From: Candidatus Moraniibacteriota bacterium
GTDB taxonomy: Bacteria > Patescibacteriota > Minisyncoccia > Moranbacterales > UBA2206
Length of the DNA stretch: 64,000 bases
Reading direction: 5' to 3'
Assembly (NCBI GenBank): GCA_030645735.1
Contig: JAUSNP010000005.1
Location: 8,151-72,150 of the forward strand
Part shown: one piece after another, positions 4,262-58,534 of the stretch
Layout of the letters: the number at the start of each line of letters is the position of its first letter
How positions within the stretch are numbered: position 1 is the first letter of the stretch
Notes under the pieces: model-generated
The model's database searches: none
Seen by the model: only the letters and a program-made list of their open reading frames with translations
Told to the model about the DNA's origin: nothing
Position numbers and translations under genes: made by a program

Positions 4262-5086
4262 ATGAACAATGAAAATAAAAATAACTTAATGATTTTTGAA
4301 AATAAAGAAGTTCGGCATATTTGGCATAATGGCGAGTTGTTTTTTTCAGTGGTAGATATTGTGGAAGTGCTATCAGAAAGCCCACACCCAAGGCAATATT
4401 GGGAAAAAGTAAAACAGAGAGAATTTATTGAGATTGAAGTGTCCCCAATTTGGGTACAGTTGAAATTAGAAGCATCTGATAGGAAGCTTAGGCTTACAGA
4501 TTGTGTAAATACGGAAAATGCTCTTCGCCTAATTCAATCAATACCGAGCAAGAAGGCTGAGCCTTTTAAGCTGTGGTTAGCAAAAGTCGGGCATGATCGT
4601 ATCAAGGAAATCGAAAATCCTGAATTGGCAGCCAATCGCGCTCGTGAAATTTATCGTACCAAGGGTTATCCAGAGGGCTGGATTGAAAAGCGAATGCGGG
4701 GAATTGAAGTGCGGGAGACATTGACCAGTGAATGGAAAGGTCGAGGGGCAAAAGAGGGAGTAGAATATGCAATTCTAACTAATGAAATTTTGCATGGAAC
4801 TTTTGACATGACTGCTGAAGATTATAAAAAATTTAAAGGATTGAGGCGTGAAAATTTGCGTGATCATATGGATGATCTGGAGCTTATTTTGACAATGTTA
4901 GGCGAAGCGACAACCACCAGAATCCATAAGGATAGGGACTCAAGAGGTTTTGAAAAGTTGAAGGGCGATGCTAAGGAGGGTGGAGCGGTGGCGGGCAGAA
5001 CAAGAGAAGATATAGAAAAAAGAACCGGTAAAAATATTTCTACAAAAAATAATTTTTTAAGCTTGAAGCAAGAGAATATTGTATGA
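4262..5086 (+). CDS. Bro-N / DinD-like phage antirepressor-family protein
   Basis: 274 aa; N-terminal Bro-N-like block (FENKEVRHIWHNGELFFSVVDIVEVL). Confidence 0.55.
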   Translation: MNNENKNNLMIFENKEVRHIWHNGELFFSVVDIVEVLSESPHPRQYWEKVKQREFIEIEVSPIWVQLKLEASDRKLRLTDCVNTENALRLIQSIPSKKAEPFKLWLAKVGHDRIKEIENPELAANRAREIYRTKGYPEGWIEKRMRGIEVRETLTSEWKGRGAKEGVEYAILTNEILHGTFDMTAEDYKKFKGLRRENLRDHMDDLELILTMLGEATTTRIHKDRDSRGFEKLKGDAKEGGAVAGRTREDIEKRTGKNISTKNNFLSLKQENIV

Positions 5087-8136: not shown

Positions 8137-8418
8137 ATGTATTTTCTCTACATTTTGCAATGCGCTGACAAAAGCTTCTATACTGGCATCACCACGGATG
8201 TGGCGCGGCGCATCGAAGAGCACAACACTTCCGAACTAGGTGCGCGCTACACGCGTGGGCGCCGGCCGTGCAAAGTTGTTTTCATCAAAGAGTTTGCCAA
8301 TCGTTCCACTGCTTCCATCGAAGAAGCGCATGTGAAAGCCCTGTCACGTGCCAAGAAAACAGAACTCATCAAAAAGCATCATCGTTTCACCAAAGCGCAT
8401 TTGCATGACATGTTTTAG
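8137..8418 (+). CDS. GIY-YIG nuclease-family protein (YhbQ/UPF0213-like)
   Basis: 93 aa; FYLYILQCADKSFYTGITTDVARRIEEHN matches the small GIY-YIG family. Confidence 0.75.
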   Translation: MYFLYILQCADKSFYTGITTDVARRIEEHNTSELGARYTRGRRPCKVVFIKEFANRSTASIEEAHVKALSRAKKTELIKKHHRFTKAHLHDMF

Positions 8419-40522: not shown

Positions 40523-40672
40523 CCAAGAAACAAAAACACAAACACAAACACCTGCCTGCCGGCAGGCAGGAATAACAAATTCAAATATCCAAAATACAAA
40601 CTTTTGATTTTTGAATTTTGAGCATTGGATATTGTTTGGCTATTGTATCTTGCGATTTGGTATTTTAAATCC

Positions 40673-55598: not shown

Positions 55599-56996
55599 GT
55601 GAAATTGATGAATATATCTGAGTTGCAAGGTAAAAAAATAACAGTTATGGGTCTTGGCCTACATGGCGGTGGAGTTGGCACTGTGCGTTTTTTGCATGCC
55701 GCAGGCGCCATTTTGACCGTGACTGACATGAAATCAGAGGTCGAGTTGCAACCATCACTAGAAAAATTGAAAGAATTGGACGGAATCAAGTATGTCTTAG
55801 GCAGGCATGAGGTTGAAGATTTTTCTCAGGCAGATATGATTGTGAAAACTCCGCCAATTCCATGGACTAATGAGTTCATAAAGATAGCTCTAGAAAAAAA
55901 TATTCCAGTGGAAATTGACTCTAGCTTGTTTTTTAAATTGTGTCCAAATCTAATCATTGGCGTGACTGGCACACGTGGCAAGACCACAACTTCCAGTTTG
56001 ATTTATGGAATTTTGAAAATGGCTGGCAAAAATCCAGTGAAGGTTGGAATTGGCCAAGTTTCAGTTTTGGACAAGCTGAATGAATTGCAAGAAGATTCAA
56101 TTGTGGTTTTTGAACTTTCCAGTTGGCGCTTGAGTGCTTTGGGTCGTCACAAATTGAGTCCAAAAATTGCCGTGGTGACCAATATCTATCCAGATCATTT
56201 GAACTATTATGGTTCAATGGATGAATATGTAGCAGACAAGAAAAATATTTTCTTAGATCAAGCCGAGGATGGTATTTGTGTTTTGAATTGGGATAATGAA
56301 GTGGTGCGTGGATTTGAAAAAGAAATTAGAGCCAAGATAATAAAAATTTCTACCAAAGAAAAGCCAACTGGATTAGCAGTTTTTGTTCGAGAGGGTCAAA
56401 TTGTGATTGGGGATGAGACTGGCGAGAAAAATATTTTGACTGTGTCAGATATAAAAATGAAAGGCGAGCATAATTTAGCCAATATTCTAGAAGCCGTGGC
56501 GGTTGCGCATTGGATGAAGATTGATGATGAAAATATTGCTAAGGCTGTTGTAGACTTTTCTGGCTTACCACATCGCTTGGAATTTGTGAAAGAAATTGAC
56601 GGCGTGAAATATTACAACGATACAGCAGCTACTTCACCAGAAGGCGCGATTGCTGGTATCAATTCTTTTTCAGAAAAAATTGTTTTGATTGCAGGTGGGT
56701 CAGATAAAAATTTAGATATGACAGTATTGGCCAAGGAGATTTCGGAAAAAGTGAAAACGGTTATTTTTTTGAAAGGTGTGGCGACAGATAAGATAATTGC
56801 TGCTATGCAGGCACAGGGCAGTGAGCAAGATTTCATTGTTGTGAGCTCAATGCTGGATGCAGTGGAAGAAGCGCGCAAACAAGCTTCCTCTGGTGATGTG
56901 GTTTTGCTTTCACCTGGATCAGCTAGTTTTGGTTTATTTTTGAACGAATTTGATCGCGGAGACAAGTTTAAGGCGGTTGTTGATGGCCTAAAATAA
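55599..56996 (+). CDS. murD: UDP-N-acetylmuramoylalanine--D-glutamate ligase
   Basis: 465 aa; Mur ligase P-loop GVTGTRGKTTT, MurD-type N-terminal Rossmann. Confidence 0.8.
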   Translation: MKLMNISELQGKKITVMGLGLHGGGVGTVRFLHAAGAILTVTDMKSEVELQPSLEKLKELDGIKYVLGRHEVEDFSQADMIVKTPPIPWTNEFIKIALEKNIPVEIDSSLFFKLCPNLIIGVTGTRGKTTTSSLIYGILKMAGKNPVKVGIGQVSVLDKLNELQEDSIVVFELSSWRLSALGRHKLSPKIAVVTNIYPDHLNYYGSMDEYVADKKNIFLDQAEDGICVLNWDNEVVRGFEKEIRAKIIKISTKEKPTGLAVFVREGQIVIGDETGEKNILTVSDIKMKGEHNLANILEAVAVAHWMKIDDENIAKAVVDFSGLPHRLEFVKEIDGVKYYNDTAATSPEGAIAGINSFSEKIVLIAGGSDKNLDMTVLAKEISEKVKTVIFLKGVATDKIIAAMQAQGSEQDFIVVSSMLDAVEEARKQASSGDVVLLSPGSASFGLFLNEFDRGDKFKAVVDGLK

Positions 56997-57067
56997 GCTG
57001 AGGCTAGCGACTATGGACAAAGATTTTATATCTGTTATAATAAATTACAGTTTTTGAGTTTGAATAT

Positions 57068-57141
57068 GGGCCCTTAGCTCAGCTGGCTAGAGCGCCTCGT
57101 TTGCACCGAGGAGGTCAGGAGTTCGAATCCCCTAGGGTCCA
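57068..57141 (+). tRNA. tRNA-Ala(TGC)
   Basis: cloverleaf with G3:U70, anticodon loop tTTGCAc; CCA not encoded. Confidence 0.85.
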
Positions 57142-57173
57142 CCCATATTACAAATATAGAAAAGAAAAACAAT

Positions 57174-57223
57174 GGGCGTGTAGCTCAGTTGGTTAGAGCA
57201 AGCCCGCCACGGCGGGTAATGAC
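57174..57223 (+). pseudogene. tRNA-Ile 5' fragment with its anticodon arm replaced by a GC palindrome
   Basis: 26 nt identical to the tRNA-Ile 5' end, then aaGCCCGCCacGGCGGGTAATGAC; no T-arm. Confidence 0.6.
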
Positions 57224-57253
57224 AGTCGATTTGCAGAGTTTAAAATAAAGCAT

Positions 57254-57327
57254 GGGCGTGTAGCTCAGTTGGTTAGAGCGCGTCACTGATAATGACGAGG
57301 TCCCCAGTTCGAATCTAGGCACGCCCA
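57254..57327 (+). tRNA. tRNA-Ile(GAT)
   Basis: GGGCGTGtaGCTCagttggttaGAGCgCGTCActGATaaTGACGaggtc...TTCGAATC...CACGCCCa. Confidence 0.85.
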
Positions 57328-57328
57328 C

Positions 57329-57589
57329 ATGTTTACTACATACATCATCAAAAACTGTAGTGGGAAGAGTTATACAGGAAGTACTGAAAATGTGAAAGAA
57401 AGGATTTTGATGCACAACGATATTTCTGTAGAAAAAGCAAGATTTCATAGAACTACTTATAATAAGGGTCCATGGTCAATCTTTTTTAGTAAGGATTTTG
57501 AAACTAGAAAAGAATCTTTGGATTTTGAGAAATTTCTTAAAACAGGTGCGGGAAGAGAGTGGTTAGAGCGCGCCCGCCGCGGCGGGTAA
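57329..57589 (+). CDS. small GIY-YIG nuclease-family protein
   Basis: 86 aa; YIIKNCSGKSYTGSTENVKERILMHN; the last ~11 codons are read from tRNA-Ile-derived sequence. Confidence 0.65.
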   Translation: MFTTYIIKNCSGKSYTGSTENVKERILMHNDISVEKARFHRTTYNKGPWSIFFSKDFETRKESLDFEKFLKTGAGREWLERARRGG

Positions 57590-57624
57590 TGACGAGGTCC
57601 CCAGTTCGAATCTAGGCACGCCCA
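57558..57624 (+). pseudogene. tRNA-Ile 3' fragment (D-loop to 3' end) with the anticodon arm replaced by a GC palindrome
   Basis: GGTTAGAGCGcgCCCGCCgcGGCGGGTAATGACGAGGTCCCCAGTTCGAATCTAGGCACGCCCA; the last 40 nt are identical to the intact tRNA-Ile. Confidence 0.6.
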
Positions 57625-57635
57625 CATAGTTGAAA

Positions 57636-57662
57636 AATTGATCCGCAGGGATCTTTTTTTGT
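57636..57662 (+). terminator. rho-independent terminator
   Basis: GATCCgcagGGATC plus T7. Confidence 0.7.
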
Positions 57663-57798: not shown

Positions 57799-57987
57799 AT
57801 GGCAAATCAAATCGTGACTTTTTTGCAAGAAGCCAAGACGGAATTAACTAAGGTCAATTGGCCAAGTAAGAAGCAGGCTACTAACTATACAATTCTAGTC
57901 ATTGGAATTAGCATCGCCGGTGCGATTTTTTTGGGAAGTTTAGATTATTTTTTTGGTTATTTATTAAAAACATTTATTATAAAATAA
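57799..57987 (+). CDS. secE: preprotein translocase SecE
   Basis: 62 aa, single C-terminal TM helix. Confidence 0.8.
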   Translation: MANQIVTFLQEAKTELTKVNWPSKKQATNYTILVIGISIAGAIFLGSLDYFFGYLLKTFIIK

Positions 57988-57988
57988 T

Positions 57989-58534
57989 ATGGCAAAACAA
58001 ACCCAACATCACGGGCGCGCCTGGTATGTAATCCACACTTATAGTGGATATGAAGACAATGTGGCTCGTAACTTGAAACAAAGAATCGAATCAATGGATA
58101 TGCAGGATTTGATTTTCGATGTCATGGTGCCGATTGAACGAAAAATCAAGATCAAGGCTGGCAAAAGAACAGTTGTCGAAGAAAAGATCTATCCGGGATA
58201 TGTATTGGTGGAAATGATGGTGACGGATGCTTCATGGTATGTAGTGCGAAACACTCCAAACGTGACTGGATTCATCGGGCTTGGTACAACTCCAACTCCA
58301 GTTGATCCAGCTGAAATTGAAATGTTGAAGAAAAGAATGGGTGTGTCTGAACCAAAATACAAGATTGATGTCCAAGTTGGTGATTCCATCAAAGTTGTGG
58401 ACGGACCATTCAAGGATTTTGATGCGAAAGTTGATGAAGTCGATGAAGCCAAAGGAAGAGTCAAAGTTTTGGTTTCAATCTTCGGACGAGAAACGCCAGT
58501 TGAATTGGATTTTCTACAAATTCATAAATTATAA
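57989..58534 (+). CDS. nusG: transcription antiterminator NusG
   Basis: 181 aa; NGN domain WYVIHTYSGYE, KOW. Confidence 0.9.
   Translation: MAKQTQHHGRAWYVIHTYSGYEDNVARNLKQRIESMDMQDLIFDVMVPIERKIKIKAGKRTVVEEKIYPGYVLVEMMVTDASWYVVRNTPNVTGFIGLGTTPTPVDPAEIEMLKKRMGVSEPKYKIDVQVGDSIKVVDGPFKDFDAKVDEVDEAKGRVKVLVSIFGRETPVELDFLQIHKL

Follow-up and report, generated by a model that had tools for sequence, protein, structure and literature searches.

What is to be made of a complete transfer RNA (tRNA) gene that lies between two broken copies of itself, with the gene for a very small putative nuclease packed into the same place? The question is raised by a locus in the chromosome of Candidatus Moranbacteria, bacteria of the candidate phyla radiation (CPR), within a stretch of 64,000 nucleotides (nt), here called the window. 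An intact tRNA-Ile(GAT) gene is followed there by an open reading frame (ORF) of 86 amino acids (aa) with a GIY-YIG domain, and the two are flanked by a 5' and a 3' fragment of tRNA-Ile in which a GC palindrome, P1, replaces part of the anticodon region. We consider it somewhat more probable than not that the locus is the occupied insertion site of a small selfish cassette, comparable to a free-standing homing-endonuclease gene of the mobile-ORF (mORF) type. The view that the cassette is a sporadically distributed insertion is held more confidently than the specific homing mechanism that we infer for it. Among the explanations raised in an earlier sequence-only reading of this DNA, a tRNA-targeting GIY-YIG mobile element has become the best supported, since relatives have empty sites, five related loci contain foreign tRNA, and copies of the cassette are variable or decayed.

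Anatomy of the tRNA-Ile locus

The cassette lies on the + strand between murD (55599-56996) and secE/nusG (57799-58534). On its left is fragment A (57174-57223, +), composed of tRNA-Ile nt 1-26, the trinucleotide AAG, a copy of P1, and TAATGAC, which corresponds to tRNA nt 36-42. The first part is identical to the intact gene at 26/26 positions (blastn), in agreement with the earlier description of A as the beginning of tRNA-Ile followed by a palindrome. P1 in A (57203-57216) has the arms CCCGCC and GGCGGG around a central AC (CCCGCCACGGCGGG). The intact tRNA-Ile(GAT), here called B, occupies 57254-57327 (+), an assignment supported by an Rfam score of 67.8 bits vs. a gathering score of 29; ARAGORN places its end at 57328. 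B encodes no CCA and is the functional tRNA-Ile copy.

The GIY-YIG ORF (57329-57589, +) begins with an ATG 1 nt past the tRNA discriminator, is not preceded by a Shine-Dalgarno sequence, and ends in a TAA that is also tRNA nt 36-38 of the downstream fragment. Its terminal codons, EWLERARRGG*, are read from TGGTTAGAGCGCG, the palindrome and TAA, and the earlier observation that the gene takes its last codons from a tRNA fragment is therefore correct. The encoded protein is 100% identical to one from an NCBI metagenome-assembled genome.

That fragment, C (57560-57627, +), consists of TGGTTAGAGCGCG, a second copy of P1, and tRNA nt 36-73 followed by CAT. The first segment (57560-57572) is D-arm-like, matches tRNA nt 17-29 at 13/13 positions, and doubles as the codons for WLER. 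P1 in C (57573-57586) has a central GC between the arms CCCGCC and GGCGGG (CCCGCCGCGGCGGG) and encodes the last residues of the protein, RRGG. The remainder of C, 57587-57627, is identical at 41/41 positions to 57290-57330 of the intact tRNA. The structure first proposed for C stands; the start proposed for it, 57558, does not, as the tRNA homology begins at 57560 (TGG).

A and C overlap over 34 nt (57190-57223 vs. 57560-57593) with 91% identity, which bears out the ~33 nt estimated earlier. In both of them, as had also been noticed, the 14-nt P1 stands in place of the 7-nt anticodon segment TCACTGA. The P1 pattern occurs only at these two sites in 64 kb, where 0.09 occurrences would be expected, and 0/100 shuffles reached the observed count. 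A is the left and C the right remnant of a tRNA-Ile gene. Neither is called as tRNA by ARAGORN or by Rfam RF00005; the only tRNA calls in this part of the window are the tRNA-Ile at 57254-57328 and a tRNA-Ala at 57067-57145. When the window and 20 + 11 related loci were searched with Rfam, at the gathering threshold and at E≤5, the only matches were to tRNA and transfer-messenger RNA (tmRNA), and no intron, ribozyme or other family fitted the fragments or the spacers. A group I intron in the anticodon loop was considered and rejected, because Rfam found no intron family in the window and a complete tRNA lies between the halves.

Resident halves, empty sites and the palindrome

Scans of genome and metagenome collections yielded ~33 loci of the same subfamily, with protein identities of 57-72%. 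The design of the window cassette is repeated in nearly all of these independent loci, and with more than 30 independent assemblies sharing the architecture, neither chance nor an artefact of assembly can account for it. Comparison of acceptor stems was informative in five loci (L001, L003, L081, L103/L104 and L105), in which A and C carry the same allele and differ from B. In these loci the acceptor-stem strand of A (5') is complementary to that of C (3'), and both depart from B through compensating changes. The acceptor stem of L081, for example, has GGGCTTA in A and TAAGCCC in C, compared with GGGCGAT/ATCGCCC in B, and the A/C allele is that of the working tRNA-Ile in a related host, L082. 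Independent decay cannot yield matched 5' and 3' halves, and A and C are therefore the ends of one formerly functional resident gene. As judged from these alleles, B and the ORF are foreign DNA lying between resident halves in these relatives. In addition, C differs from B in L113 and L098, and A differs from B in L084.

The allele switch falls at the palindromes. Inward of the palindromes, the left end of the cassette has tRNA nt 36-47 and its right end nt 17-29, so that the flanks of the target appear in swapped order. This is the geometry expected of Campbell-type recombination, or of gap repair off a donor of like structure. Hybrid flanks, with foreign sequence beside the ORF and resident sequence outside, are likewise apparent in the relatives.

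Contigs with empty sites were fetched via NusG homologs of 85-99% identity. L165, in which NusG is 89% identical, has the order and orientation of genes in the window: amidohydrolase, murD, tRNA-Ala, tRNA-Ile, secE, nusG. The tRNA-Ala/tRNA-Ile pair is also present, inverted, in L169/L170 (NusG 85% identical) and L161/L162 (NusG 97% identical). All of these contigs have a plain tRNA-Ile, with no ORF, fragment or palindrome. The 30-nt spacer between A and B in the window (57224-57253, +; AGTCGATTTGCAGAGTTTAAAATAAAGCAT) is of the type native to the upstream flank of an intact tRNA-Ile. Its start, AGTCGaTTTGC, matches the flank 5' of tRNA-Ile in the empty-site relative L161 (AGTCGTTTTGC), and the resemblance of the spacer (AGTCGATTTGC...) to that flank indicates that B sits behind a normal upstream flank, with A ~30 nt further up. 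The presence of the cassette is thus sporadic, and cognate sites are empty in close relatives, as expected of a free-standing homing-endonuclease gene. With respect to secE-nusG, the tRNA-Ala/tRNA-Ile pair is inverted in L161/L162 (1855-2072) and L169/L170 (2009-2161) and direct in L165 (1990-2142) and the window (57067-57327); such differences among close relatives point to local inversions around the tRNA pair.

The loci that carry the cassette vary in their neighbourhoods, with tRNA-Val or tRNA-Ala upstream and tRNA-Phe, tRNA-Arg, tRNA-Ala or secE downstream, and in their composition. A-type fragments are found 5' of B in ~15 loci, four of which have two copies (L088, L098, L106, L107), and the 3' ends of these fragments range from tRNA nt ~42 to ~58. 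The arrangement B-ORF-C without A is seen in ~11 loci, A being missing from about a third. L094 and L096 are one sequence, differing only by the A unit. The arrangement is tandem in L002 (B-ORF-C-ORF-C), and L082 has B, an internally deleted ORF, C, a further ORF and C. The order is reversed in L003 and L109, where a pseudo-copy precedes the ORF and the intact tRNA follows. The ORF of L113 has a frameshift and an internal deletion of ~110 nt, with an intact ORF in its sister locus L101; in L084 the ATG has changed to ATA. The pseudo-copies accumulate further insertions and deletions. This variation in copy number, with tandem and decayed forms, indicates turnover rather than a frozen arrangement. 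Within it the protein length is constant at 86 aa, the linkage is always to tRNA-Ile(GAT), and in most loci the ATG lies 0-5 nt past the tRNA. The comparison of relatives proposed in the earlier reading, which asked about a fixed and identical arrangement, revealed a variable and sporadic one, though the ORF is under purifying selection.

In loci with an ORF that is not directly adjacent to the tRNA, a leader/trailer inverted repeat of 10-13 nt encloses the intact tRNA-Ile and extends its acceptor stem (L001 2893-3000, L084 740-850, L103 2395-2500; for example TTCGGTGCTTTGT ... ACAAAGCACCGAA in L084). No leader/trailer stem of this kind surrounds the intact tRNA in the window. Degenerate tRNA-Ala pseudo-copies with inserted hairpins occur beside intact tRNA-Ala in some tRNA-Ile cassette loci (L101 ~1350-1445, L102, L113 ~2060-2140, L109 2232-2310), indicating that pseudo-tRNA formation is not limited to tRNA-Ile. 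In L003 a C-type tRNA-Ile remnant with two palindromes (4726-4812), the allele of which matches the A fragments, is found 1.37 kb 3' of the intact tRNA; the DNA between them may be further insertion cargo.

Among 35 loci, P1-type palindromes are confined to tRNA-Ile-derived DNA. In 36 distinct copies 216/216 stem positions are paired, and the central two bases vary freely. Three of the six pairs are changed on both sides (CG to UA 11 times, CG to GC twice, and one further CG to UA), and the covariation score was reached by 0/500 shuffles. P1 is found at the anticodon site, in the variable region (L081, L094/L096) and in the T arm (L103/L104, L106, L109, L112). It always replaces exactly 7 nt, which are TCACTGA, ACGAGGT, TCCTCGA or TCTTGGA. 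These 7-mers, at tRNA positions 30, 42 and 61, all have the form N-CNNNG-N, of which each tRNA-Ile allele contains 3-6 among 68 sequence windows. A second type of palindrome (TCCGCC..GGCGGA) is inserted within the remaining conserved 7-mer, in the D arm at position 10. The GIY-YIG domain of I-TevI cleaves at CNNNG. From this pattern, the palindromes may mark putative cut sites of the nuclease in copies that are dispensable to the cell. The possibility that the centre of P1 is an Eco29kI/Cfr42I-like CCGCGG site was rejected because the central dinucleotide varies freely among relatives. Elsewhere in the window, an AT-rich intergenic region contains a perfect 20-nt GC palindrome (40551-40570, CCTGCCTGCCGGCAGGCAGG) of the same family as the D-arm palindrome in tRNA-Ile pseudo-copies (L094, L105, L091) and in a tRNA-Ala pseudo-copy (L109).

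The putative nuclease, its proposed movement and other explanations

The ORF product is a GIY-YIG protein: it matches Pfam GIY-YIG PF01541 over residues 2-72 (E = 1.4e-11; 45 bits vs. a cut-off of 22.6). It consists of this domain without an auxiliary domain; there is no linker and no DNA-binding domain, and the protein stops at residue 86. All 17 subfamily members compared share Y5, Y15, G17, R25, N30, H40 and E67, and at least 90% retain H29. The invariant set covers the GIY-YIG catalytic residues, namely the Tyr of GIY, the Tyr/Gly of YIG, the central Arg, the His/Asn and the C-terminal Glu. The solved structures nearest to a profile of the 17 relatives are 1zg2 (E = 1.2e-5), 1ywl (2.7e-4) and SLX1 (4.8e-4). 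An AlphaFold2 model of the ORF product (predicted local distance difference test, pLDDT, 91.9) gave as its best Foldseek matches 1zg2, 7cq3, 6seh and 1ywl (probability 0.97-1.0), which represent UPF0213 and Slx1. By sequence and predicted fold, the protein is thus a minimal putative nuclease of the Slx1/UPF0213-like branch. With the Seg/I-TevI model TIGR01453 it scored 17.5 bits, below the cut-off of 56. No family in PHROGs or PADLOC was matched by the ORF product, and hence these databases give no support for a phage gene or a defence system. A scan of viral contigs produced one distant match only, and no sign of a phage vehicle.

The protein is maintained by purifying selection, as indicated by a median ratio of nonsynonymous to synonymous differences (pN/pS) of 0.32 among 24 distinct subfamily genes and by ratios of nonsynonymous to synonymous substitution rates (dN/dS) of 0.15-0.35 where dS is finite. 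At third codon positions the majority frequency is 0.86-0.94 in the last 11 codons vs. 0.61-0.65 in the body of the gene, which indicates that the tail is constrained as DNA and not as protein alone. A second small GIY-YIG gene in the window (8137-8418, +), encoding 93 aa (MYFLYILQCADKSFYTGIT...), is of the ordinary UPF0213/YhbQ type; its product is 39% identical to that of the cassette ORF over 61 aa, and it adjoins no tRNA.

In the homing account, the mobile unit would comprise P1, tRNA nt 36-47, the spacer, B, the ORF, tRNA nt 17-29 and P1. The encoded nuclease would break an ORF-less tRNA-Ile gene at the CNNNG motif (CACTG) in the anticodon loop. The cassette would then enter the resident gene at this point by double-strand-break/gap repair or by Campbell-type recombination, with universally conserved tRNA sequence serving as the homology arms for repair; uptake of donor DNA by CPR bacteria is plausible. 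Since the cassette would bring its own replacement tRNA-Ile, the host would keep an essential function. After excision through the 34-nt A/C repeat the host would be left with nothing but a dead tRNA, which would make the cassette hard to lose and thereby stabilise it. Recombination across the 41-nt B/C repeat could remove the ORF and leave a working tRNA, and this would explain forms without A, ORF-less sites and tandem arrays. P1 may mark or block cleavage motifs of the nuclease in the dispensable copies.

The ORF, without a promoter or ribosome-binding site of its own, would be expressed by read-through from the tRNA promoter. A candidate promoter at 57014-57041 (+), 5' of tRNA-Ala, has TGGACA, 16 nt and TG-TATAAT, with 11/12 consensus matches and an extended -10 TG. 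From its sequence this site is likely the start of a single transcript that includes tRNA-Ala, A, tRNA-Ile, the ORF and C. A hairpin resembling an intrinsic terminator, GATCCGCAGGGATC followed by T7 (57640-57660, +), lies before the secE-nusG promoter and would end the tRNA/cassette transcript. Processing of the tRNA 3' end would turn the ORF transcript into a nearly leaderless messenger RNA (C-AUG). The upstream neighbour, tRNA-Ala(TGC) (57067-57145, +; ARAGORN, Rfam), is paired with tRNA-Ile in related genomes that have no cassette. A promoter scan also gave a weak promoter-like site at 57219-57246 (+; ATGACA, 16 nt, TAAAAT; 10/12), just 5' of the intact tRNA-Ile, the -35-like hexamer of which is supplied by the truncated end of A (TAATGACA). 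The A-B spacers of relatives, judged by eye with no scan run, have no consistent equivalent of it.

Of the known systems, fungal mitochondrial mORFs and phage SegB come closest. A fungal mORF imports the 3' end of a gene from a foreign source, and the native 3' end remains downstream of it; examples are the Allomyces macrogynus atp6-GIY-YIG ORF and the atp6/atp9/cox2/nad3 hybrids of Glomus (PMC3630166). As with mORFs, the endonuclease ORF is directly behind a conserved host gene, here with its ATG 1 nt past the tRNA, and occurs sporadically among close relatives. It also arrives with a foreign copy of the 3' part of that gene, the native 3' part remaining downstream as an unused remnant. This arrangement of foreign and native ends is found in L113, L098, L081 and L105; in the window B and C are identical (41/41). 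A further likeness is that of AT-rich host genomes with GC-rich hairpin elements, which are represented by the double-hairpin elements of Allomyces and the GC clusters of yeast. Unlike the situation with mORFs, the host gene is a tRNA in a bacterial chromosome rather than a mitochondrial protein gene, there is a 5' remnant as well, and the whole gene, not only its 3' end, is replaceable. The enzyme is a minimal Slx1-like domain of 86 aa and not a full homing enzyme, and a defined 14-nt palindrome replaces specific 7-mers.

Phage SegB, also a GIY-YIG enzyme, cuts inside tRNA genes and co-localises with tRNAs; features reported for it include microhomology of its 3' end with a tRNA 5' region, that of tRNA-Tyr in phage T6, from which tandem tRNA-segB repeats result (PMC13096335). 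Like the free-standing gene for SegB in the tRNA gene cluster of phages T4/T6, the gene in the window adjoins tRNA genes, and a parallel to the microhomology can be seen in the 13-nt D-arm match at the 3' end of the ORF, along with the tandem ORF-C units of L002. SegB is phage-borne and much longer than 86 aa, with a DNA-binding part. It belongs to the Seg/I-TevI branch, in contrast to the window ORF, which is below the TIGR01453 cut-off and has no PHROGs match, and no tRNA pseudo-copies with palindromes have been described for it. UPF0213 proteins (BH0048, 1zg2; EF2693, 1ywl; the E. coli YhbQ family) provide the best sequence and fold matches and have the same domain-only size; however, tRNA linkage, pseudo-tRNA flanks and sporadic distribution are not described for UPF0213. 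Integrase islands and prophages likewise target tRNA or tmRNA genes, duplicate part of the tRNA at their junctions, and restore a working tRNA. They differ in having a recombinase, which is absent from this element of ~0.4 kb, and here it is the middle of the tRNA that is duplicated, with two dead fragments and an imported whole tRNA as the outcome. In the literature covered, from which subscription journals were mostly absent, no description was found of chromosomal small GIY-YIG genes linked to tRNA or tmRNA.

Several considerations weigh against the homing account. Its weakest point is B, in which all of the candidate cleavage motifs are intact. A and C are without the anticodon 7-mer, B nt 17-47 is identical to the tRNAs at empty sites, and thus the immunity required for classical homing is not visible in the occupied allele. 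We infer the cleavage, its target site and the mobility of the cassette, and an 86-aa catalytic domain without a DNA-binding domain does not account for site specificity. The nearest ORF homolog is only 72% identical, and no near-identical cassette was seen in two different hosts, so that recent transfer is not demonstrated. A, B and C in the window share one allele, and the argument from resident and incoming alleles is borrowed from relatives. A preference for CNNNG is established for I-TevI but is not known for Slx1-like domains, and the pattern was noticed post hoc; P1 itself contains CNNNG motifs. The account also provides no mechanism for the origin of P1 or for the stereotyped replacement of 7 nt by 14.

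A first alternative is a fixed, domesticated arrangement, in which a Slx1-like nuclease with a host role in DNA repair or in tRNA/RNA metabolism is merely co-transcribed with tRNA-Ile, and the tRNA fragments are by-products of local duplication or recombination, with no horizontal movement. Purifying selection on the ORF, its constant length of 86 aa and its unfailing linkage to tRNA-Ile(GAT) suit this explanation, and so do the age of the homologs (57-72% identity) and the lack of near-identical copies in different hosts. In the literature, standalone prokaryotic Slx1-like proteins have been treated as housekeeping enzymes that are inherited vertically, one of them in fusion with a tRNA methyltransferase (PMC1564403). 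We nevertheless judge it improbable. The ORF is missing from the closest relatives, one of which has identical synteny; allele mosaics with compensating stem changes occur, in which A equals C and differs from B; ORFs have decayed or been deleted; pseudo-copies vary in number and two gene orders exist; and distant homologs sit behind every kind of tRNA and tmRNA. A slightly lower probability is assigned to a new cut-and-paste or hairpin-ended element, whose true ends, or recognition structures, would be the GC palindromes in the form of extruded hairpins or cruciforms. The Slx1-like nuclease, being structure-specific, would then act on palindromes and not on tRNA, and solo palindromes would be footprints of earlier insertions. 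This would fit the occurrence of P1 at both junctions of resident and cassette DNA, the replacement of 7 nt by solo P1 copies at three different tRNA positions, and the maintenance of pairing by compensatory change with the central 2 nt free. The closest solved relatives are structure-specific Slx1 nucleases, and distant family members also have GC-rich hairpins that start at the tRNA 3' end. However, we know of no GIY-YIG transposase, the inner ends of the cassette repeat the flanks of the target, a sign of homologous recombination rather than of transposition, P1 is never seen outside tRNA-Ile-derived DNA, and no mechanism is offered for the change from 7 to 14 nt.

Two other possibilities, both suggested by the sequence-only reading, are much less probable. 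One is the scar of an integrase-type island that had integrated into tRNA-Ile and then been excised, A and C being its attachment (att) sites attL and attR. tRNA genes are classic integration sites, and a 34-nt overlap of A and C is what att sites would show. The analogy is apt for the duplicated, swapped flanks with a palindrome at both junctions; it fails because the repeats are only ~370 bp apart, neither the unit nor the DNA beside it contains an integrase, and nothing has been excised. Between A and C, no ORF other than the GIY-YIG gene has a domain match, and the neighbours are murD and secE. Moreover, the same small nuclease unit recurs in more than 30 genomes, and the overlap falls mid-tRNA instead of at the 3' end and destroys the anticodon. 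The locus is an occupied site rather than a scar, and we regard the island as very unlikely. Marginally less likely even than this is a regulatory or decoy RNA formed by A, C or both, or by a reconstituted tRNA-like molecule with a hairpin for an anticodon arm. P1 covariation is compatible with an RNA hairpin, and the reconstituted sequence can be drawn as a cloverleaf. Yet A is missing in about a third of loci and truncated at varying points, pseudo-copies gather further insertions and deletions, and there is no Rfam match or ARAGORN call. The fold energies of A, C and the reconstituted sequence are no better than those of shuffles (z = -0.36, +0.28 and -1.33), and the tRNA-like RNA proposed earlier is not upheld.

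Distant homologs behind tRNA and tmRNA genes

Distant homologs of the ORF, with 30-40% identity, are present in CPR, Bacteroidota, Verrucomicrobiota, Acidobacteriota, Proteobacteria and Dependentiae. These loci were collected from genome contigs (L004-L080) and metagenome contigs (L110-L158), with the ORF starting at ~3001 or 2501. A co-oriented tRNA or tmRNA gene ends less than 400 nt upstream in 53/69 genome loci, and 19 amino-acid specificities are represented. In metagenomes 13 of the 38 distant loci are just downstream of a co-oriented tRNA or tmRNA. An upstream tRNA or tmRNA on the opposite strand was found in none of the genome loci and one metagenome locus, and a downstream one in 3/70.

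The tRNA or tmRNA 3' end is also the exact start of a conserved, GC-rich structured spacer (CCA|GCCTTCGC ... GCGAAGGCTG). The reverse complement of the 9-mer at this junction is present, at 8-9/9 positions, within 160 nt in 41/54 loci vs. 13% of control positions. There are 27 different seed sequences among these junction hairpins, and the spacer covaries between loci. Even at E≤5 it matches no Rfam family, and it is a candidate for a new structured RNA or DNA element. Examples of the spacer are L008 2849-2985, L011 2791-3000, L018 2862-3000, L065 2844-2958 and L077 2837-3000. It contains an inner hairpin, GCTACGGCTGGCAGGCCAGC, followed by a second, GTCCGCC-GTAGC...GCGAA-GGCGGAC. The region from tRNA or tmRNA to ORF has been amplified internally in L059 (1003-1260), as tandem units of ~21 nt (CAGCGAGACGAAGTCTGCTTT), and in L034 (2753-3000) a hairpin module of ~120 nt is completely duplicated.

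An exact repeat, at least 13 nt long, of the tRNA 3' end behind the ORF was found in 4/51 distant loci (L016, L026, L045, L071) vs. 0/48 controls. With only four such cases, duplication of the tRNA 3' end is either not general among the distant homologs or too old to detect. The cassette in the window looks like a specialised branch of a much larger set of cassettes, of which no description was found in the literature covered. It is possible, though we put it at less than an even chance, that this set is a phylum-spanning class of miniature selfish cassettes in which a Slx1-like GIY-YIG gene and GC-rich hairpin modules colonise tRNA and tmRNA genes. The tRNA-Ile subfamily, the most extreme, would break the resident essential tRNA at the anticodon, supply a replacement of its own that the host could ill afford to lose, and leave P1 at each CNNNG motif in the disabled copies, and the standalone 'housekeeping' Slx1-like nucleases of bacteria would largely be mobile elements.

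If this is true, the mobile-ORF or homing way of life would extend to the chromosomes of bacteria and their tRNA genes, by means of a nuclease that is as small as possible, a bare 86-aa catalytic domain. An explanation would be offered for many small proteins annotated as 'GIY-YIG nuclease family protein'. The pattern points to a stereotyped DNA lesion, in which 7 nt give way to a 14-nt palindrome at CNNNG, and enzyme engineers would have an interest in a minimal nuclease able to find a tRNA gene with no DNA-binding domain to guide it. For CPR bacteria, the cassette would provide a testable route for the horizontal replacement of an essential, single-copy tRNA gene.

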